From an uncultured delta proteobacterium (GTDB taxonomy: Bacteria > Desulfobacterota > WTBG01), in NCBI GenBank assembly GCA_963793865.1, contig CAWCBP010000004.1:64703-128702 (forward strand): 64,000 bases of DNA, given 5' to 3'. The first letter of the stretch is position 1. Every line of letters begins with the position of its first letter. Under the pieces are notes generated by a model. It did no database searches, was not told the DNA's origin, and was given only the letters and a program-made list of their open reading frames with translations. Both the position numbers and the translations under genes were made by a program. Below, piece after piece: positions 3,233-24,910 of this stretch.

Positions 3233-4327
3233 TTACTGCTTTTCCCCGTCTCCCTTCGACAGCTCGGCAAAGTAAGAGCGCACTGCCTGGTACACAGCCT
3301 GAGCCTCTTTCCATGACTTTACATCCTCATCCCCGGGCACTTTTTTACACCTCCGCTCTCCGAAGCTCACCGCCACCGCGGGCATGCCGGTATGCACAAT
3401 GAGAAAATCAGTGCTTTCACCCAGGGACACACGGCTGCAGGAAAACCCGTCGGAGATCTCCTTCCTGAGCAAACCGGCAAGCAGCTTTCCTTTACTGCTG
3501 TTGTAATAGTAGGCTATCCCGGACCGTTTCGCGTGGTCAAGGGAAATGACCAGGTCAGCAGACACCTCCTCTGATTGTAAAACCTTCTCCGCGGCCCCGG
3601 GTGAAGTTTCATCCCTTCGGGTCAGCACGACACCGGCGCCGGCAAACCTGAGCAGCTCTCCTATGTGAAGCGCCAGCTTGAGATTGTCGGCGAACCGCTG
3701 CCGGTCGCGGGAATCGCCGATCACGGGCTCTTCATTTGCCCCGCGGGGATCGAGCATGATGACCTTTCCCCGGAGCAGCCCCCCATCCACCGGCCGGAGC
3801 GTCACCTCCTCTTTCTGAACCAGCCCCGCTCCTCCCCCCTTGAGCATACCCATGACCGGCCGGTAACCATCCCGCTGAACGGTAAAGGGAATGCCGGCGG
3901 CATCAGACTGAAACAAGCAGTACCCAAGGCGATCGGTTTCGCAATATCGCTCCTTCCCCCATGCCACTTGGGCATGCTCGACCGGACTGCCCGCGGGATC
4001 GTGAATATATATCTCTGCCTGACCCCACGCCGGTGAAGCAAACCTCCCCTGATACGAAGCTGACACGGTTCCGCACGCCGCCGTCACCAGCACGCTGCCC
4101 GGATGAACATCCGCCTCGAAATGGGTAACTGCCACTCCCTCCCGGGTCGGCACCACCGTCTCCACCAGCCTGCCCGCTGAAACAGACAAGCTGACCGGCG
4201 TGCCGTCAGCCACCGGGTTGCGGTTGTCATCCAGAACCAGCGCCGTTACCCTGCACCGTGAGCTGCCGTCAGGAGGAATGATTTCAGGGAAAATGCCGCC
4301 TTCTATGCTTGCGGGCGGACGCGACAT
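3233..4327 (-). CDS. Amidase_3-like protein with N-terminal Ig-like (Big) domain; first zinc-ligand His replaced, so possibly non-catalytic
   Basis: The C-terminal half aligns to the Amidase_3 fold of the upstream gene, but the DPGHGG motif reads DPRGAN. The SLDHAK and LGEST motifs are retained. Confidence 0.55.
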   Translation of the reverse strand: MSRPPASIEGGIFPEIIPPDGSSRCRVTALVLDDNRNPVADGTPVSLSVSAGRLVETVVPTREGVAVTHFEADVHPGSVLVTAACGTVSASYQGRFASPAWGQAEIYIHDPAGSPVEHAQVAWGKERYCETDRLGYCLFQSDAAGIPFTVQRDGYRPVMGMLKGGGAGLVQKEEVTLRPVDGGLLRGKVIMLDPRGANEEPVIGDSRDRQRFADNLKLALHIGELLRFAGAGVVLTRRDETSPGAAEKVLQSEEVSADLVISLDHAKRSGIAYYYNSSKGKLLAGLLRKEISDGFSCSRVSLGESTDFLIVHTGMPAVAVSFGERRCKKVPGDEDVKSWKEAQAVYQAVRSYFAELSKGDGEKQ

Positions 4328-14304: not shown

Positions 14305-15399
14305 ATGGCCAAGGCAAAAGTAGCAATCCTGAGAACAAAACCGGAAACGGTAGTGAAGGATTACCAGCGTCTCTGCGAGCTTGCGGGACTGAAAAGCGCC
14401 CTCGATCCATCCGCCAAAACCATTTTGAAGGACAACATCACCTGGCACAATGTCTTCCCCGGCGTGAACACCACCCCCTGGCAGCTTGAAGGCACCATTG
14501 AAAGTCTCAAGGCGGCAGGCCTCAACGACCTGGTCACCGTCCACAACCACACCGTTGTCACCATACCGGAAAAGGGGGAGCAGGATTTAAAGTTCAAGCC
14601 CATCTATGAACGGTACAAGATCCCGGTGCTCTTTAACTTCAAAGAATCGGACATGCGCTGGGTAGAATACAAGCCGAAGTTCAAGACACTGGCGCTGCAC
14701 AAGATTTTCCCGGAGGGGATACGCATCCCGGATTATTTTCAGGGCAAAAACATTGTGCATATGCCCACGGTAAAAACCCACTCCTACACCACCTACACCG
14801 GGGCGCTTAAGAATGCCTTCGGGGGCCTCCTCAACTACCATCGCCATTATACCCACACCTGGATCCATGAAACCCTGGTCGACCTGCTTGCCATCGGCAG
14901 GGAGATTCATACCGGCATGTTTGCCACCATGGACGGGACCACCGTGGGCTCAGGTCCGGGGCCGCGCACCGTAGTACCCCACGACCGGGGAATCATCCTG
15001 GCATCGGCTGACCAGGTGGCCATTGATTCGGTAGCCGCGCGGATGATGGGATTCGGGTGGAAGGATCTGCCCTGCATCTACCTGGCCCATCAGCATGGCC
15101 TTGGCATAGGAGACCCGGCGGAGATCGAGATTGTCGGTGATACGGATGCGGCCGGGGAAAACTGGAACTTTAAGGTAGGGGTCAATCTGGCAACCGGGGT
15201 GGGGAGAATATTCTGGTTTGACACGCCCCTGAAGCACCTTCAGAAGCTGTTTTTTCAAACATTTATCGTTAATATTTTCATCTTTGCCTCGGAGTTTTAC
15301 CACGATTCAATCTGGTACCGGTTCAAAGGGATGCCGGTTGTCCGGAAATGGGAAACAGAGTCACCGTGGGGACAGCTGTTCGCCCGGTATCCCAAGTAG
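14305..15399 (+). CDS. DUF362 domain-containing protein
   Basis: HMPTVKTHSYTTYTGALKNAFGGLL...MDGTTVGSGPGP matches the DUF362 family. GAAGGAG lies 6 nt upstream of the ATG. Confidence 0.65.
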   Translation: MAKAKVAILRTKPETVVKDYQRLCELAGLKSALDPSAKTILKDNITWHNVFPGVNTTPWQLEGTIESLKAAGLNDLVTVHNHTVVTIPEKGEQDLKFKPIYERYKIPVLFNFKESDMRWVEYKPKFKTLALHKIFPEGIRIPDYFQGKNIVHMPTVKTHSYTTYTGALKNAFGGLLNYHRHYTHTWIHETLVDLLAIGREIHTGMFATMDGTTVGSGPGPRTVVPHDRGIILASADQVAIDSVAARMMGFGWKDLPCIYLAHQHGLGIGDPAEIEIVGDTDAAGENWNFKVGVNLATGVGRIFWFDTPLKHLQKLFFQTFIVNIFIFASEFYHDSIWYRFKGMPVVRKWETESPWGQLFARYPK

Positions 15400-15420: not shown

Positions 15421-15481
15421 CTGGACCAATTTAGGGTCACCCCCCCCTGTGATTGCCCGATCATTCAGGGCAGGCACGGGG
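15421..15481. repeat. REP-like palindromic element (copy A), 3' of RAYT
   Basis: TAGGGTCACCCCCCCCTGTGATTGCCCGATCATTCAGGGCAGGCACGGGGGCCTACCCCTACC. The core GGGCAGGCACGGGGGCCTGCCC is palindromic. Near-identical copies lie at 15743-15803 and 16088-16148. Confidence 0.8.
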
Positions 15482-15489
15482 GCCTACCC

Positions 15490-16083
15490 CTACCATATGT
15501 GCTCTTGTTTCATAGCATTCATGTTCTCAGGATTATCCTGATCCAATTCCCATTGCAATGGATTATTGAGGATGTACTCGCGTGCACGGTTTAACTCTTC
15601 TTCCCTGCGGATAACATGTTCGTAGTAATTGCGCTGCCACAATTTCCCTGAATAACGGGGCCATTTCAATTGTTTCACACCATCTGAATACCGTTTGATG
15701 GTCATGGTTTTAAAGCTTTGTACCAAGTCCGGTAATCCCTTTGTAGGGGCAACCCCCCGTGGTTGCCCATTATGCGCAGGGCAGGCACGGGGGCCTGCCC
15801 CTACCAAGACAATGATTCCATGCACATGATTAGGCATCACAACAAATGCATCTGTTTCTACCCCCTGATAATGTGATGACAATTCTTCCCAGATCACCTG
15901 AACCATCCCTCCAGCAGTATTTAAAAGCATCTGTCCTTTAATAACTTCACCAAACAAACATTGCCTATTCTGTGTGCACAGGGTTATAAAATACGCTCCC
16001 GACTGGGCGTAATCGTATCCGCTTAACCTTATTGAACGGCGTCTATTTCCTGGCCGGGTGTTTATGATTATGTCCTGTATCAT
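15490..16083 (-). mobile_element. REP-associated tyrosine transposase (RAYT, IS200/IS605 TnpA_REP-like) carrying an in-frame internal REP copy
   Basis: HUH motif NHVHGII, catalytic-Tyr region WQRNYYEHVIRREEELNRAREYILNNPLQWE. Residues VGAGPRACPAHNGQPRGVAPTKG are the translation of a REP copy (15743-15803) lying inside the ORF. Confidence 0.8.
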
Positions 16084-16087
16084 CTTG

Positions 16088-16148
16088 TAGGGTCACCCCC
16101 CCTGTGATTGCCCGATCATTCAGGGCAGGCTCAGGGGCCTGCTCCTGC
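16088..16148. repeat. REP-like palindromic element (copy C), immediately 5' of RAYT start
   Basis: Same roughly 60-bp sequence as copy A, with 2-3 substitutions. Confidence 0.8.
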
Positions 16149-16149
16149 A

Positions 16150-16243
16150 TCAAATACCCCCTTTTCCACGCCATTCATATGATCCGCGGTGTCCTCATGC
16201 AACGCCCATCGCAATGGACAATTGTAGGACCGGCCGGCCATCC
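16150..16243 (-). pseudogene. remnant of a second RAYT (C-terminal 30 codons only)
   Basis: The minus-strand translation NCPLRWALHEDTADHMNGVEKG parallels the intact RAYT C-terminus NNPLQWELDQDNPENMNAMKQE. At the DNA level, ccatcgcaatgg matches ccattgcaatgg. Confidence 0.6.
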
Positions 16244-17173
16244 CTACTTCATCTCCACGGTGACAGGAACAGGGGCCGAAGCAACATCGCTCAATACTGT
16301 CAGTGCTTCTTTGTTCTTTTGAAGCGTGCCGCTGAAAAATGCCGCCAGGGTACCGCCGGTAAGGGCGCGCATGCCGTCGCGGTCTTCACCGCCCGGGCAA
16401 GCCGGTGAAAAGTCCTCTTCATCGATCATATCCGCATGACCCAGTTCGGTAGCTGTGACCAGCCAGGAAGGACTGGGGTTGGCTTCGTAGAAATGGCGGG
16501 GCCCGATTTCCTCCGGGGCACAGGCCAGAAATCCCCCCACGACAATCGGCCCTAAACCGGTTCCCAGGACGTACGTCGGTATGTTAAAGGTCAGGGGTCC
16601 TGTTATTGCCAGGGTCTGCCCGAAGATTTCAAGTGCGTCCACCGGATCCACTCCCGCCAGCGCATCTATCTTTCTCGGAACTTCAAGGGCCATCCGGTAC
16701 GCTGTCTGCCCTCCGCGCGAATGACCCGCCAGGCCGAGCAGCCTCATATCAGCACTGACCGGAACAACCGCTTGCAGGTTCTTCTCGAGCCAGCGTATGA
16801 TCTCCACCCCCAGAGCTGCCTCCTCCTCGGGCGAGGGTGCTAATGACCCGTCCCCGGGAGGGTACATCTGCGGCGCAACAACAACAAACCCATGGCTGGC
16901 AAGATGGGTCATGATCGTTTCATATCCCTTGATGGATGCCGTAAAACCATGCTGAAACATGACCACCGGGTATCTTCCGCAGGCTGTCGGCGAATAGATA
17001 TCCATCTCCACCGGCGCATCATCGCCGGAAAGGGAAATCACCTCCACGGAAAGCGCTCCCGGTTCATAAAAGTCACCCGGGCTGACATAGAGGTCAAACT
17101 GACAGCAGCTCATGAGCGCGATTATGGTTCCTGCTACGATTACCATTATTTTGCACGGCCTGTATTTCCTCAT
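16244..17173 (-). CDS. alpha/beta-hydrolase lipoprotein (esterase/lipase; dienelactone-hydrolase or PAF-acetylhydrolase-like)
   Basis: Signal peptide with ALMSC lipobox; nucleophile elbow GHSRGG; 309 aa. Confidence 0.7.
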   Translation of the reverse strand: MRKYRPCKIMVIVAGTIIALMSCCQFDLYVSPGDFYEPGALSVEVISLSGDDAPVEMDIYSPTACGRYPVVMFQHGFTASIKGYETIMTHLASHGFVVVAPQMYPPGDGSLAPSPEEEAALGVEIIRWLEKNLQAVVPVSADMRLLGLAGHSRGGQTAYRMALEVPRKIDALAGVDPVDALEIFGQTLAITGPLTFNIPTYVLGTGLGPIVVGGFLACAPEEIGPRHFYEANPSPSWLVTATELGHADMIDEEDFSPACPGGEDRDGMRALTGGTLAAFFSGTLQKNKEALTVLSDVASAPVPVTVEMK

Positions 17174-17557
17174 ATAAACCTCCCCCGGCGTAAATTTTTA
17201 CTATTGATTAGAAAATAAACTACATGGAGGGACGCGCTCCGTCGCGTCCGAATAATACATGCGGCCATGACAGAGCATGGCCCTCCATCATCAATGGTCA
17301 TCCTGCGACTTGATCGCAGGATCCAATAAAATATAATAATACCAATTAAAAATTTAATGCAACCTTTTAATGCCCCAGACAAGGCGCGTGCAGCGGCAAG
17401 ATAGCGTTTGACATAATGAGACAGAATGCTACTGTATTTAACTATCAGCATCCGGTAAAGCATTGCCATGCACGCGCTCGCAGGGACGTTCAGCGCAAGG
17501 GAATGATCCGCGCACCCCGTCTCTGTTCCGGGCACACATACTGAAAAGGGAGGTCGC

Positions 17558-24759: not shown

Positions 24760-24910
24760 GCGAGCCGGAAAAGGTGAAAAATACGTAGGGGCGACCGGCC
24801 GGTCGCCCCTACATGTTCAGATACGGAGGGACGCTCTCCGTCCCATCCGATTATTGTACGCGGCCATGACGGAACATGGCCCTCCACGTGACATATTCGC
24901 GCCATCTGCG

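Follow-up and report, generated by a model that had tools for sequence, protein, structure and literature searches.

The RAYT locus in the window (the whole 64-kb stretch of DNA that was analysed) is best explained, at a probability of roughly 0.85, as a subclass-2.4-type REPtron with cognate REPINs at the start codon, at the stop codon and in an in-frame surface loop of its transposase gene, an assignment made by shared features. Comparison with related loci showed that REPs residing in this loop are a subfamily-wide trait and that, in any given genome, they behave as part of that genome's REP population.

The RAYT gene and its three REPINs

The RAYT/TnpA_REP gene occupies positions 15490-16083 on the minus strand as an intact, uninterrupted open reading frame of 197 amino acids, and was characterized from the reading frame itself, profile searches, an AlphaFold model and Foldseek. 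Judged by its sequence, it encodes a Y1 HuH transposase of the RAYT/TnpA_REP kind, with predicted activity, and its naming as a RAYT in an earlier sequence-only reading of this DNA was borne out. Pfam PF01797 (Y1_Tnp) matched with 27.3 bits against a gathering cutoff of 23, in a match confined to the C-terminal half of the protein because the insert described below splits the domain. NF047646 (REP_Tyr_transpos) was the top NCBIfam match with 71.1 bits in two stretches; this is below the curated cutoff of 80 for that equivalog of E. coli-type RayT, and the protein is not filed there. The profile of its own family aligned with it end to end (337 bits), and a homologue search returned 7987 homologues. 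Foldseek with the AlphaFold model (pLDDT 81) retrieved the Y1 transposases ISDra2, IS608 and IS200 TnpA together with 4ER8, at E values of 2.5e-7 to 7.5e-6, and 4ER8 was the sole match of a PDB profile search with the family.

The functional residues expected of such an enzyme were kept, including the HuH motif, those that bind GTAG and the position of the catalytic Tyr. The HuH motif, H86-V-H88, lies inside strand 86-94 of the model, and Y170 (in R-E-Y-I-L-N-N-P) corresponds in the profile alignment to the catalytic Y115 of 4ER8. The GTAG contacts of E. coli TnpA_REP, as given in Fig. S11 of PMC6006769, are W94, Q95, W99, E100, H101 and R104; their equivalents here are W149, Q150, Y154, E155, H156 and R159, of which five of six are identical, and all six positions are invariant or nearly so among the aligned homologues. 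The C-terminus extends 27 residues past Y170, and the C-termini of homologues are unconserved in the alignment. The public gene call (P0002) is only 135 amino acids long, against 197 for the intact reading frame. A promoter and terminator scan gave shuffle-level results.

Three elements of about 62 nt, designated REPINs A, B and C, were found 3' of, within and 5' of the gene, where the sequence-only reading had placed them. Each consists of two inverted REP hairpins with GTAG heads, in the manner of a REPIN, with the architecture GTAGGGGCAACCCCCCGTGGTTGCCC, spacer and reverse complement of GTAGGGGCAGGCCCCCGTGCCTGCCC and with 8-bp stems of the form GTAG + GGGC...GCCC, and the full elements can be aligned across about 65 nt. 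Within the window their core palindrome, GGGCAGGCACGGGGGCCTGCCC, has three occurrences, all at the RAYT locus (positions 15468, 15779 and 16123, with 1, 0 and 3 mismatches, respectively), where 100 shuffles gave a chance expectation of 0. The remaining 63 kb of the window held no further copy of this REP family, which was counted against the best explanation. The copies had also been called near-identical; this was true of A and C (92% identity over 51 nt) and did not hold for B, whose left-hand REP belongs to another variant, so that its identity to A is 69%.

REPIN A (15431-15493), in the 3' flank, was delimited by repeat search, alignment and folding. Its left REP is degenerate at the head (TTAG) and carries a bulge in the stem, and its right REP (15468-15493, minus strand) equals the right REP of B at 25 of 26 positions, with the stop codon of the RAYT gene being the TAG within the GTAG head of this REP. 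The element folds weakly (-15.4 kcal/mol, z = -2.3). REPIN C (16087-16148), identified in the same way in the 5' flank, ends 3 nt from the RAYT ATG; its left GTAG head is intact, the right REP, with a GCAG head and 3 mismatches, is degenerate, and its fold has -15 kcal/mol and z = -2.4. The degeneracy of these two flanking REPINs was likewise counted against the best explanation. REPIN B (15743-15804), the in-ORF copy, is the only intact REPIN in the window: GTAG is preserved at both ends, the 8-bp stems of its left (15743-15768, plus strand) and right (15779-15804, minus strand) REPs are both perfect, and the whole folds into a single long hairpin (-28 kcal/mol, z = -5.9).

Metagenome scans for the flank-specific REP variant, with a 30-mer and with a gapped 21-mer, returned 0 matches each, and an Rfam search with the hairpin gave just a chance-level miRNA match (E = 0.43). 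Elsewhere in the window, a double-foot REP was observed at 24785-24812.

The internal copy had been described as lying in frame between the HuH motif and the next helix, and this placement stood. REPIN B is translated as V94-GAGPRACPAHNGQPRGVAP-T114, followed by KG, between the HuH motif and the helix that starts at L117. The structure check proposed with the earlier claim pointed to a loop: in the AlphaFold model, residues 95-116 form a coil with a pLDDT of 60-71, between strand 86-94 and helix 117-139. The in-ORF REPIN is translated into a loop of 21-23 amino acids that is predicted to be poorly ordered. The region between HuH and W/Q comprises about 15 residues in E. coli TnpA_REP, compared with about 45 in the family of the window RAYT.

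Loop-resident REPs across the subfamily

The sequence-only reading had treated the internal copy as a one-off insertion, which the family comparison overturned. A segment of the type VGAGPRACP...GQPQGVAPT was present at the same site in every one of the 29 closest homologues, a set drawn from different phyla. Additionally, motifs outside the loop were used to pick 78 loci in genomes of more than 15 phyla, and GTAG hairpins were found inside the HuH-to-W/Q loop at 66 of them, with 12 lacking an intact internal hairpin; a plus-then-minus arrangement of hairpins occurred at 41 of the loci selected independently of the loop. A search with the N-terminal 92 amino acids alone recovered peptides encoded by GTAGGGG/CCCCTAC after HuH in 115 of 135 representatives. 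The insert is therefore older than the window's copy of the gene, and REPs within the reading frame of such enzymes had already been published in 2018, as discussed below.

Comparison of internal and flanking REPs provided evidence that loop copies follow the REP population around them. Internal and flanking REPs of the same locus were identical at a median of 23.5 of 24 positions, with at least 23 at 29 of 46 loci, whereas REPs compared between loci were identical at a median of 14 of 24, with only 3.6% of comparisons reaching at least 23. None of 2000 permutations gave an internal-to-flank identity as high as that observed. The internal GTAG was read in frame 0 in 53 cases and in frame 1 in 8, and never in the frame that would place TAG as a codon (n = 0). 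Among close homologues the identical REPIN was found in either orientation, the length and sequence of the loop varied widely among relatives, and tandem duplication of the loop REPs was frequent.

Covariation was also seen in the stems, where both sides had changed at 5 of 8 stem pairs (49 cells), with almost none in slid controls. The hairpins entering this analysis had been pre-selected for at least 6 of 8 complementary pairs, so the accompanying figure of 98.5% paired is inflated. These compensatory changes, together with the tracking of flanking REPs in each genome, indicate that the segment is REP DNA despite its conservation. A comparison with homologues had earlier been put forward as a means of refuting REP origin, on the premise that conservation would speak against it; the alternative turned out to be a false dichotomy, as the segment is both conserved in close homologues and REP DNA. 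Altogether, the tracking of flanks, the presence of both orientations and of all stop-free frames, and a solo REP at the empty site in relatives (described below) suggest continuous turnover in the loop rather than a frozen insertion.

Alternative explanations and the upstream relic

An unlikely reading, though the one that fared best among those set against the REPtron, is that the in-ORF REPIN, instead of being a tolerated passenger, has a function in the REP/RAYT system and is actively maintained, acting in cis as a master copy, as an expression throttle or as an indel-prone on/off switch. If this were true, it might be a protected master copy that co-inherits gene and repeat family and reseeds the flanks, or a site by which the enzyme or the hairpin would hold down expression of the RAYT gene or turn it off through indels. 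Such a role would explain the perfect internal hairpins, their identity to the flanks in each genome, the orientation flips and the fact that B, with its markedly more stable fold than the flanks at about -15 kcal/mol, is the sole intact REPIN. Internal copies that are perfect and flank-identical across many genomes argue for active maintenance or turnover, and the tandem arrays of REPs and the numerous frameshifted representatives suggest that the loop often changes in length. However, a transposase acting on any REP can yield concerted evolution without benefit to the gene, the loci without an intact internal hairpin do without such an element, and Quentin et al. place the loop at the periphery of their model and regard it as probably neutral (PMC6006769). 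The frameshift counts are themselves biased by clustering at 50% identity and inseparable from assembly errors at hairpins; since such clustering over-represents aberrant sequences, the fraction of frameshifted representatives was also rejected as a measure of pseudogenisation.

It appears quite improbable that the RAYT is a dead pseudogene and the nest the decaying remains of an extinct REPtron. The degenerate flanking REPINs, the lack of other family copies within 64 kb and the short public gene call would fit this explanation, but the reading frame is uninterrupted with its HuH motif, GTAG-binding residues and catalytic Tyr position in place, the match to the family profile runs end to end, and the internal REPIN is perfect.

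The sequence-only reading had envisaged a recent, private jump of a REP into the RAYT with the frame kept, in a nest built by serial insertion of RAYT/REP units at one spot. This combined scenario has a low probability. The near-identity of the internal and the REPIN A right-hand REPs speaks for a private jump, which is nonetheless already refuted by the same insert at the same position in the closest homologues and most of the 78 loci. Serial insertion is favoured by a segment of about 70 nt (...SYNCPLRWALHEDTADHMNGVEKG; 16172-16241, minus strand) that adjoins REPIN C in the same order as the resident gene adjoins REPIN A, and that was recognized by DNA alignment and a single BLASTP comparison. 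The claim that it is the remnant of a second RAYT's 3' end gained modest support: it shows 72% identity over 53 nt, contiguous with REPIN C, and the BLASTP comparison gave E = 1e-6, while the family HMM applied to six-frame fragments was not significant for it. The relic is identical to the resident 3' end at 44 of 67 positions (66%) and to the 3' end of a homologue at 46 of 68 (68%). These near-equal distances fit duplication followed by decay as well as serial insertion and thus do not discriminate between the two, nor do they decide for or against a candidate origin of the relic from a different RAYT lineage.

The orthologous site in relatives added to this picture. In relatives whose flanking genes are 95% (DUF362) and 86% (hydrolase) identical to those of the window, the whole unit is missing, and a 56-bp spacer without a RAYT holds one solo REP-like hairpin of the same REP type. 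Another relative carries a 71%-identical RAYT at the opposite end of the same hydrolase gene. The lack of the unit in relatives was counted in favour of the earlier claim of serial insertion, which is one possibility; a tandem duplication, or a replacement, with later deletion may have produced the nest instead. Where the locus meets the neighbouring hydrolase gene, an imperfect GTAG...CTAC palindrome (GTAGGACCGGCCGGCCATCCCTAC; 16224-16247), an uncertain REP found as inverted repeat I10 and by comparison with locus L081, spans that gene's stop codon. It was considered as a degraded double-foot REP; half of it, the portion CCGGCCG...CTAC, is ancestral intergenic spacer sequence common to relatives.

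Finally, it is scarcely credible that the 21-23-aa segment is a conserved functional protein motif and the flanking REPs are immobile debris of broken RAYTs, even though the peptide is almost invariant among the closest homologues, truncated or fused RAYT fragments lie near intact genes (P0121, P0123, P0193) and a RAYT relic is present at the window locus, because elsewhere the peptide is swapped wholesale (AGPRAC, ATPRGC, ADLCVC, APLVGA, GFKPAP, KNFSP) while the DNA keeps the GTAG palindrome with paired changes, loop REPs are read in differing frames and both orientations, and the modelled segment has no secondary structure and low confidence. An origin of the flanks as RAYT-loop debris was likewise rejected: REPIN C adjoins the C-terminal relic rather than loop-flanking coding sequence, and the same hairpins are also seen at distances of kilobases from the nearest RAYT (loci L019, L028, L042, L047 and L068 are examples), as well as in solo form at the orthologous site.

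Relation to known systems and meaning of the locus

REPs within the reading frame of subclass 2.4 TnpA_REP were published by Quentin, Siguier, Chandler and Fichant in 2018 (BMC Genomics 19:475, PMC6006769). The window RAYT shares with this subclass an HuH/Y core that is interrupted between beta3 and alphaC by a hypervariable insertion, where its own coil 95-116 lies; a REP within that insertion, with REPIN B encoding residues 94-114; flanking REPs of the long canonical type, headed 5' by GT[AG]G and with a stem foot of three G-C pairs; double-foot REPs in the same genomes, of which the window has the one noted above; and a loop modelled as peripheral (PMC6006769). Subclass 2.4 is reported as abundant among Cyanobacteria and Bacteroidetes, with scattered occurrences in other groups (PMC6006769), whereas the window copy comes from a Deltaproteobacteria/Thermodesulfobacteriota-like MAG and its relatives span more than 15 phyla. 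The identity of internal and flanking REPs at each locus, the change of orientation among homologues and the avoidance of the TAG frame go beyond the main text of Quentin et al. 2018.

In-frame intragenic dimers of GTAG REPs, encoding 20-30 amino acids and thought to be tolerated in loops or linkers, have also been reported (Di Nocera, De Gregorio and Rocco 2013, BMC Genomics 14:522). REPIN B resembles these as an in-frame REP dimer encoding a loop-type peptide. Those cases, however, are scattered in unrelated genes, often of replication or repair, and mostly at non-conserved sites, while in the present case the REP pair sits in its cognate transposase, at a site conserved throughout the subfamily.

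The fold of the window RAYT is the same as that of E. coli TnpA_REP (Foldseek E = 7.5e-6, TM 0.50-0.59), with the HuH motif, the W-Q...E-H..R contacts (5 of 6) and the Tyr in R-x-Y-I..NP conserved, and in both cases the gene is flanked by GTAG REPs. The E. coli enzyme, also named RayT or YafM and reportedly the subject of work by Messing et al. in 2012 (PDB 4ER8) and by Ton-Hoang et al. in the same year, differs in having no REP inside its gene and bulged REP stems, and its sequence identity with the window RAYT is about 19%. REPINs, which Bertels and Rainey are said to have described in 2011, are two inverted REPs with a short spacer that form one long hairpin and are associated with RAYTs. 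The elements of the locus share this inverted-pair, spacer and hairpin form and the association with a RAYT. Classic REPINs, in contrast, are said to be extragenic and to number tens to hundreds of copies, against three in the window, all at the RAYT and one of them in its reading frame.

In the REPtron explanation that we prefer, one REPIN directly precedes the start codon, a second sits right at the stop codon, and the third is carried in frame by the loop that joins the HuH strand (beta3) to alphaC. By analogy with studied relatives, the enzyme would bind a folded single-stranded REP together with its GTAG tetranucleotide, cut at a CT/CA dinucleotide beside the hairpin via a 5'-phosphotyrosine intermediate and then rejoin the strands, and this cleavage and rejoining could spread or rearrange REPs. 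The earlier suggestion that TTGTAGGG is the target or cleavage site had to be given up, since GTAG is the conserved 5' tetranucleotide of REPs, used for recognition and guiding, and the strand is cut at CT/CA dinucleotides adjacent to the hairpin (Corneloup et al. 2021, PMC8266576). The loop itself would be a tolerated, self-perpetuating landing or conversion site for REPs and not a one-time accident, and whole RAYT/REP units may be gained or lost at REP-bearing intergenic sites.

For annotation, REPs within the reading frame explain why such RAYT genes score below curated thresholds, why gene calls are short (as with the public call here) and why peptides of the VGAGPRACP/GQPQGVAPT type flood metagenomic protein sets. 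The locus is a clean example of a published oddity, a domesticated transposase whose reading frame contains the enzyme's own substrate. The comparative data on flank tracking, orientations, reading frames and the solo REP extend the published description, and the idea of turnover in the loop is experimentally testable.

Intact RAYT gene bracketed and interrupted by its REPs

The genes for a DUF362 protein (14305-15399, plus strand) and a chlorophyllase-like hydrolase (16244-17173, minus strand) are convergent and separated in the window by an 844-bp spacer, whose sole intact ORF is that of the RAYT (197 aa; 15490-16083, minus strand). The protein matched Pfam Y1_Tnp (27.3 bits; cutoff 23), and its top NCBIfam match was REP_Tyr_transpos, which it matched in two stretches at 71.1 bits, short of the 80-bit cutoff. 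The public record, P0002, has only 135 aa and starts at an internal GTG (MIWEELSS...), whereas the 197-aa ORF is uninterrupted and aligns with the family from end to end. In the AlphaFold model (pLDDT 81), the HuH strand (residues 86-94) is followed by coil (the beta3-alphaC loop; pLDDT 60-71) and then by a helix (117-139). Foldseek matches were the ISDra2, IS608 and IS200 transposases and E. coli TnpA_REP (4ER8), the latter also being the sole PDB match of the family profile. W149, Q150, E155, H156 and R159 align with residues that contact GTAG in 4ER8, and Y170 with its catalytic Y115. The gene is intact and, judged by these correspondences, has the catalytic and GTAG-binding residues. Between the HuH strand and the W/Q region, the profile alignment gives about 15 residues in 4ER8 compared with about 45 in the family of the window RAYT.

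The RAYT gene is bracketed and interrupted by its cognate REPs. The palindrome first noticed here has three occurrences in the 64 kb of the window (0-3 mismatches; 0 expected by chance), all of them in the RAYT spacer. In each case it makes up the right-hand half of an element some 62 nt long, with two inverted GTAG-headed hairpins, which reads on the plus strand as GTAGGGGCAACCCCCCGTGGTTGCCC, a 10-nt spacer and the reverse complement of GTAGGGGCAGGCCCCCGTGCCTGCCC; these elements are REPIN-like doublets. Copy A (15431-15493) adjoins the RAYT gene on the 3' side and supplies its stop codon, the TAG of the GTAG head (15490-15493). Copy B (15743-15804) lies within the ORF and is translated as V94...T114, between the HuH strand and the next helix, while copy C (16087-16148) ends 3 nt ahead of the ATG. 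The sequence-only reading had placed REP-like elements 3' of, inside and 5' of the gene, with the internal one read in frame, and was right on both points. Its description of the copies as near-identical holds for A and C (92% identity) but not for B, whose left REP is of another variant, so that its identity to A is only 69%. Folded as single-stranded DNA, B gives one long hairpin (-28 kcal/mol, z = -5.9); the degenerate copies A and C reach about -15 kcal/mol (z about -2.3). The TTGTAGGG boundary, taken earlier for a target site, is instead the REP head, since GTAG is the known recognition/guide tetranucleotide and the cut is made at a neighbouring CT or CA dinucleotide (Corneloup et al. 2021, PMC8266576).

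No further copies of this REP family were found in the remaining 63 kb of the window, and two metagenome scans for the flank-specific variant were empty. A perfect double-foot GTAG REP of another family, GTAGGGGCGACCGGCCGGTCGCCCCTAC (24785-24812; -15 kcal/mol, z = -4.9), separates two convergent ORFs, away from any RAYT; at homologous locus L021, a REP of this type flanks the RAYT. The window contains both kinds described by Quentin 2018 (PMC6006769), the long canonical REPs with three G-C pairs at the foot and the double-foot REPs. A second dispersed repeat is about 65 nt long and has two hairpins and GGAGGG...CCCTCC ends (GGAGGGCCATGyTCyGTCATGGCCGC...GACGGAGmGCGTCCCTCC). It was observed upstream of the hydrolase gene (17230-17286), adjoining the double-foot REP (24818-24885) and as a half copy (295-320). 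Its 26-nt pattern gave three matches with 0 mismatches on 24 specified bases, with 0 expected by chance.

Loop sequence across the family

The internal REP had been interpreted as a copy inserted into its own transposase gene. VGAGPRACP, a variable linker and GQPQGVAPT stand at the same position in all 29 closest homologues (55-74% identical), which include Methylococcus, Acetithermum, Chloroflexota and Deltaproteobacteria. Because that search is biased to shared words, two retests blind to the insert were carried out. Scanning species-representative genomes with the motifs [KR]LWQRNYY and [VI]MPNH[IV]HG only yielded 80 loci in more than 15 phyla; GTAG-headed hairpins lay within the loop at 66 of the 78 loci where it could be delimited, most commonly as one forward and one reverse hairpin (41 loci). 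An exhaustive phmmer search with the N-terminal 92 residues only returned 19,322 representatives; among the best 150 of these, 135 had at least 25 residues past the HuH, and peptides encoded by GTAGGGG or CCCCTAC were present in 115 of the 135. The in-frame copy is a trait of the family rather than an insertion private to the window gene.

The loop sequence is also REP DNA and not a protein motif. Its peptides are unlike between lineages (VGADLCVCP..GEHIGSPL, VGAPLVGAQ..RATTRVAPT, VGAGFKPAPT, VGAKNFSPL, RGGSRTAPT and others), and all versions back-translate to GTAGGGGC...GCCCCTAC. Among 33 distinct 26-nt loop hairpins, five of eight stem pairs vary on both sides (49 cells), with almost none in slid controls; this set was pre-selected for complementarity at 6 or more of 8 pairs, so the argument rests on covariation rather than on percentage paired. 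The GTAG head was read in frame 0 in 53 cases, in frame 1 in 8 and in the TAG-giving frame in none. Among close homologues this same REPIN is found in either orientation with respect to the ORF, with the GCAGGC-type REP first in the window RAYT, L005 and L007, and the GCAACC-type first in L002, L004 and L015; tandem multiplication within loops is common (e.g., L005, L016 and protein P0063). Internal hairpins agreed with REPs less than 1 kb outside the same gene at a median of 23.5/24 (at least 23 at 29 of 46 loci), compared with 14/24 between loci (3.6% at 23 or more), and the observed mean internal-flank identity was matched in 0 of 2000 permutations. Family-wide, loop REPs co-vary with flanking REPs. 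The proposal that conservation in homologues would mark the segment as not REP-derived is inapplicable, the segment being both; altogether, the observation in the sequence-only reading is correct, and its interpretation is correct in part.

In several homologues the ORF continues through the 3' REPs, which adds tails encoded by REPs to the C-terminus (P0007, P0035). Many 50%-identity cluster representatives (P0121-P0270) are out of frame past the in-ORF REP, their AAQLLR peptide being WQRNYY in a shifted frame, and in P0121, P0123 and P0193 a RAYT fragment ending at the loop REP is fused to a second complete N-terminus. The loop may be a hot spot of indels and recombination, or of assembly error.

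History of the locus

In relatives with 95% (DUF362) and 86% (hydrolase) identical DNA, 56 bp separate the two genes, without a RAYT. This spacer holds one REP-like hairpin, TAGAGGCAACCCCCGTGGTTGCGCCTAC, of the type of the left half of copy B (L081 7093-7120; L082 3433-3460; L084 1387-1414), with a degenerate head (ATAG) that contains the DUF362 stop codon. At L085 (3001-3670), a RAYT 71% identical to the window copy carries REPINs of its own, in the ORF and on the 3' side, and likewise takes its TAG stop from a REP (3573-3576). It lies just upstream of where the same hydrolase gene starts, and the window copy lies at that gene's other end (compare window 17173-17300); the contig stops just past the REPIN. 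The RAYT-free relatives with a solo REP, together with the L085 RAYT at the other hydrolase end, suggest that this lineage has gained or lost a RAYT-plus-REPIN unit at intergenic sites that carry REPs.

The claimed remnant of a second RAYT is modestly borne out by about 70 nt upstream of copy C that resemble a RAYT 3' end, with 72% similarity over 53 nt adjoining the REPIN, and by BLASTP (1e-6 in a single comparison), but a family HMM gave no confirmation; compared with the 3' ends of the resident RAYT and of one homologue's RAYT, the relic shows 66-68% identity. The nest may reflect two successive arrivals, or a duplication followed by deletion. A third possibility starts from the relatives' spacer, where a REPtron may have been lost by recombination between REPs, leaving the solo REP. 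An imperfect GTAG...CTAC palindrome (16224-16247) spans the hydrolase stop codon at the relic's edge; it may not be a REP, because it is partly common to the relatives' 56-bp spacer.

Place among known RAYTs and proposed mechanism

TnpA_REP subclass 2.4 is defined by a beta3-alphaC insertion whose length and sequence are hypervariable (Quentin, Siguier, Chandler and Fichant 2018, PMC6006769) and which was modelled as a peripheral extension with likely little effect on activity (Fig. S10 legend therein). The kind is already known, namely subclass 2.4 with in-ORF REPs, and by its shared features the window locus is probably a further member. Our literature search found in-ORF REPs of TnpA_REP treated by no paper besides Quentin 2018; in-frame REP dimers have been described within unrelated genes (Di Nocera et al. 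2013, BMC Genomics 14:522).

The in-ORF REPIN is unlikely to be functional and actively maintained, the alternative being a neutral passenger. By analogy with studied RAYTs, the enzyme would bind a folded single-stranded REP plus GTAG, cut at CT or CA via a phosphotyrosine and then transfer strands. The beta3-alphaC loop may accept any stop-free REP-encoded peptide and, once occupied, would keep drawing whichever REP type is current in the genome, by insertion, conversion or duplication.
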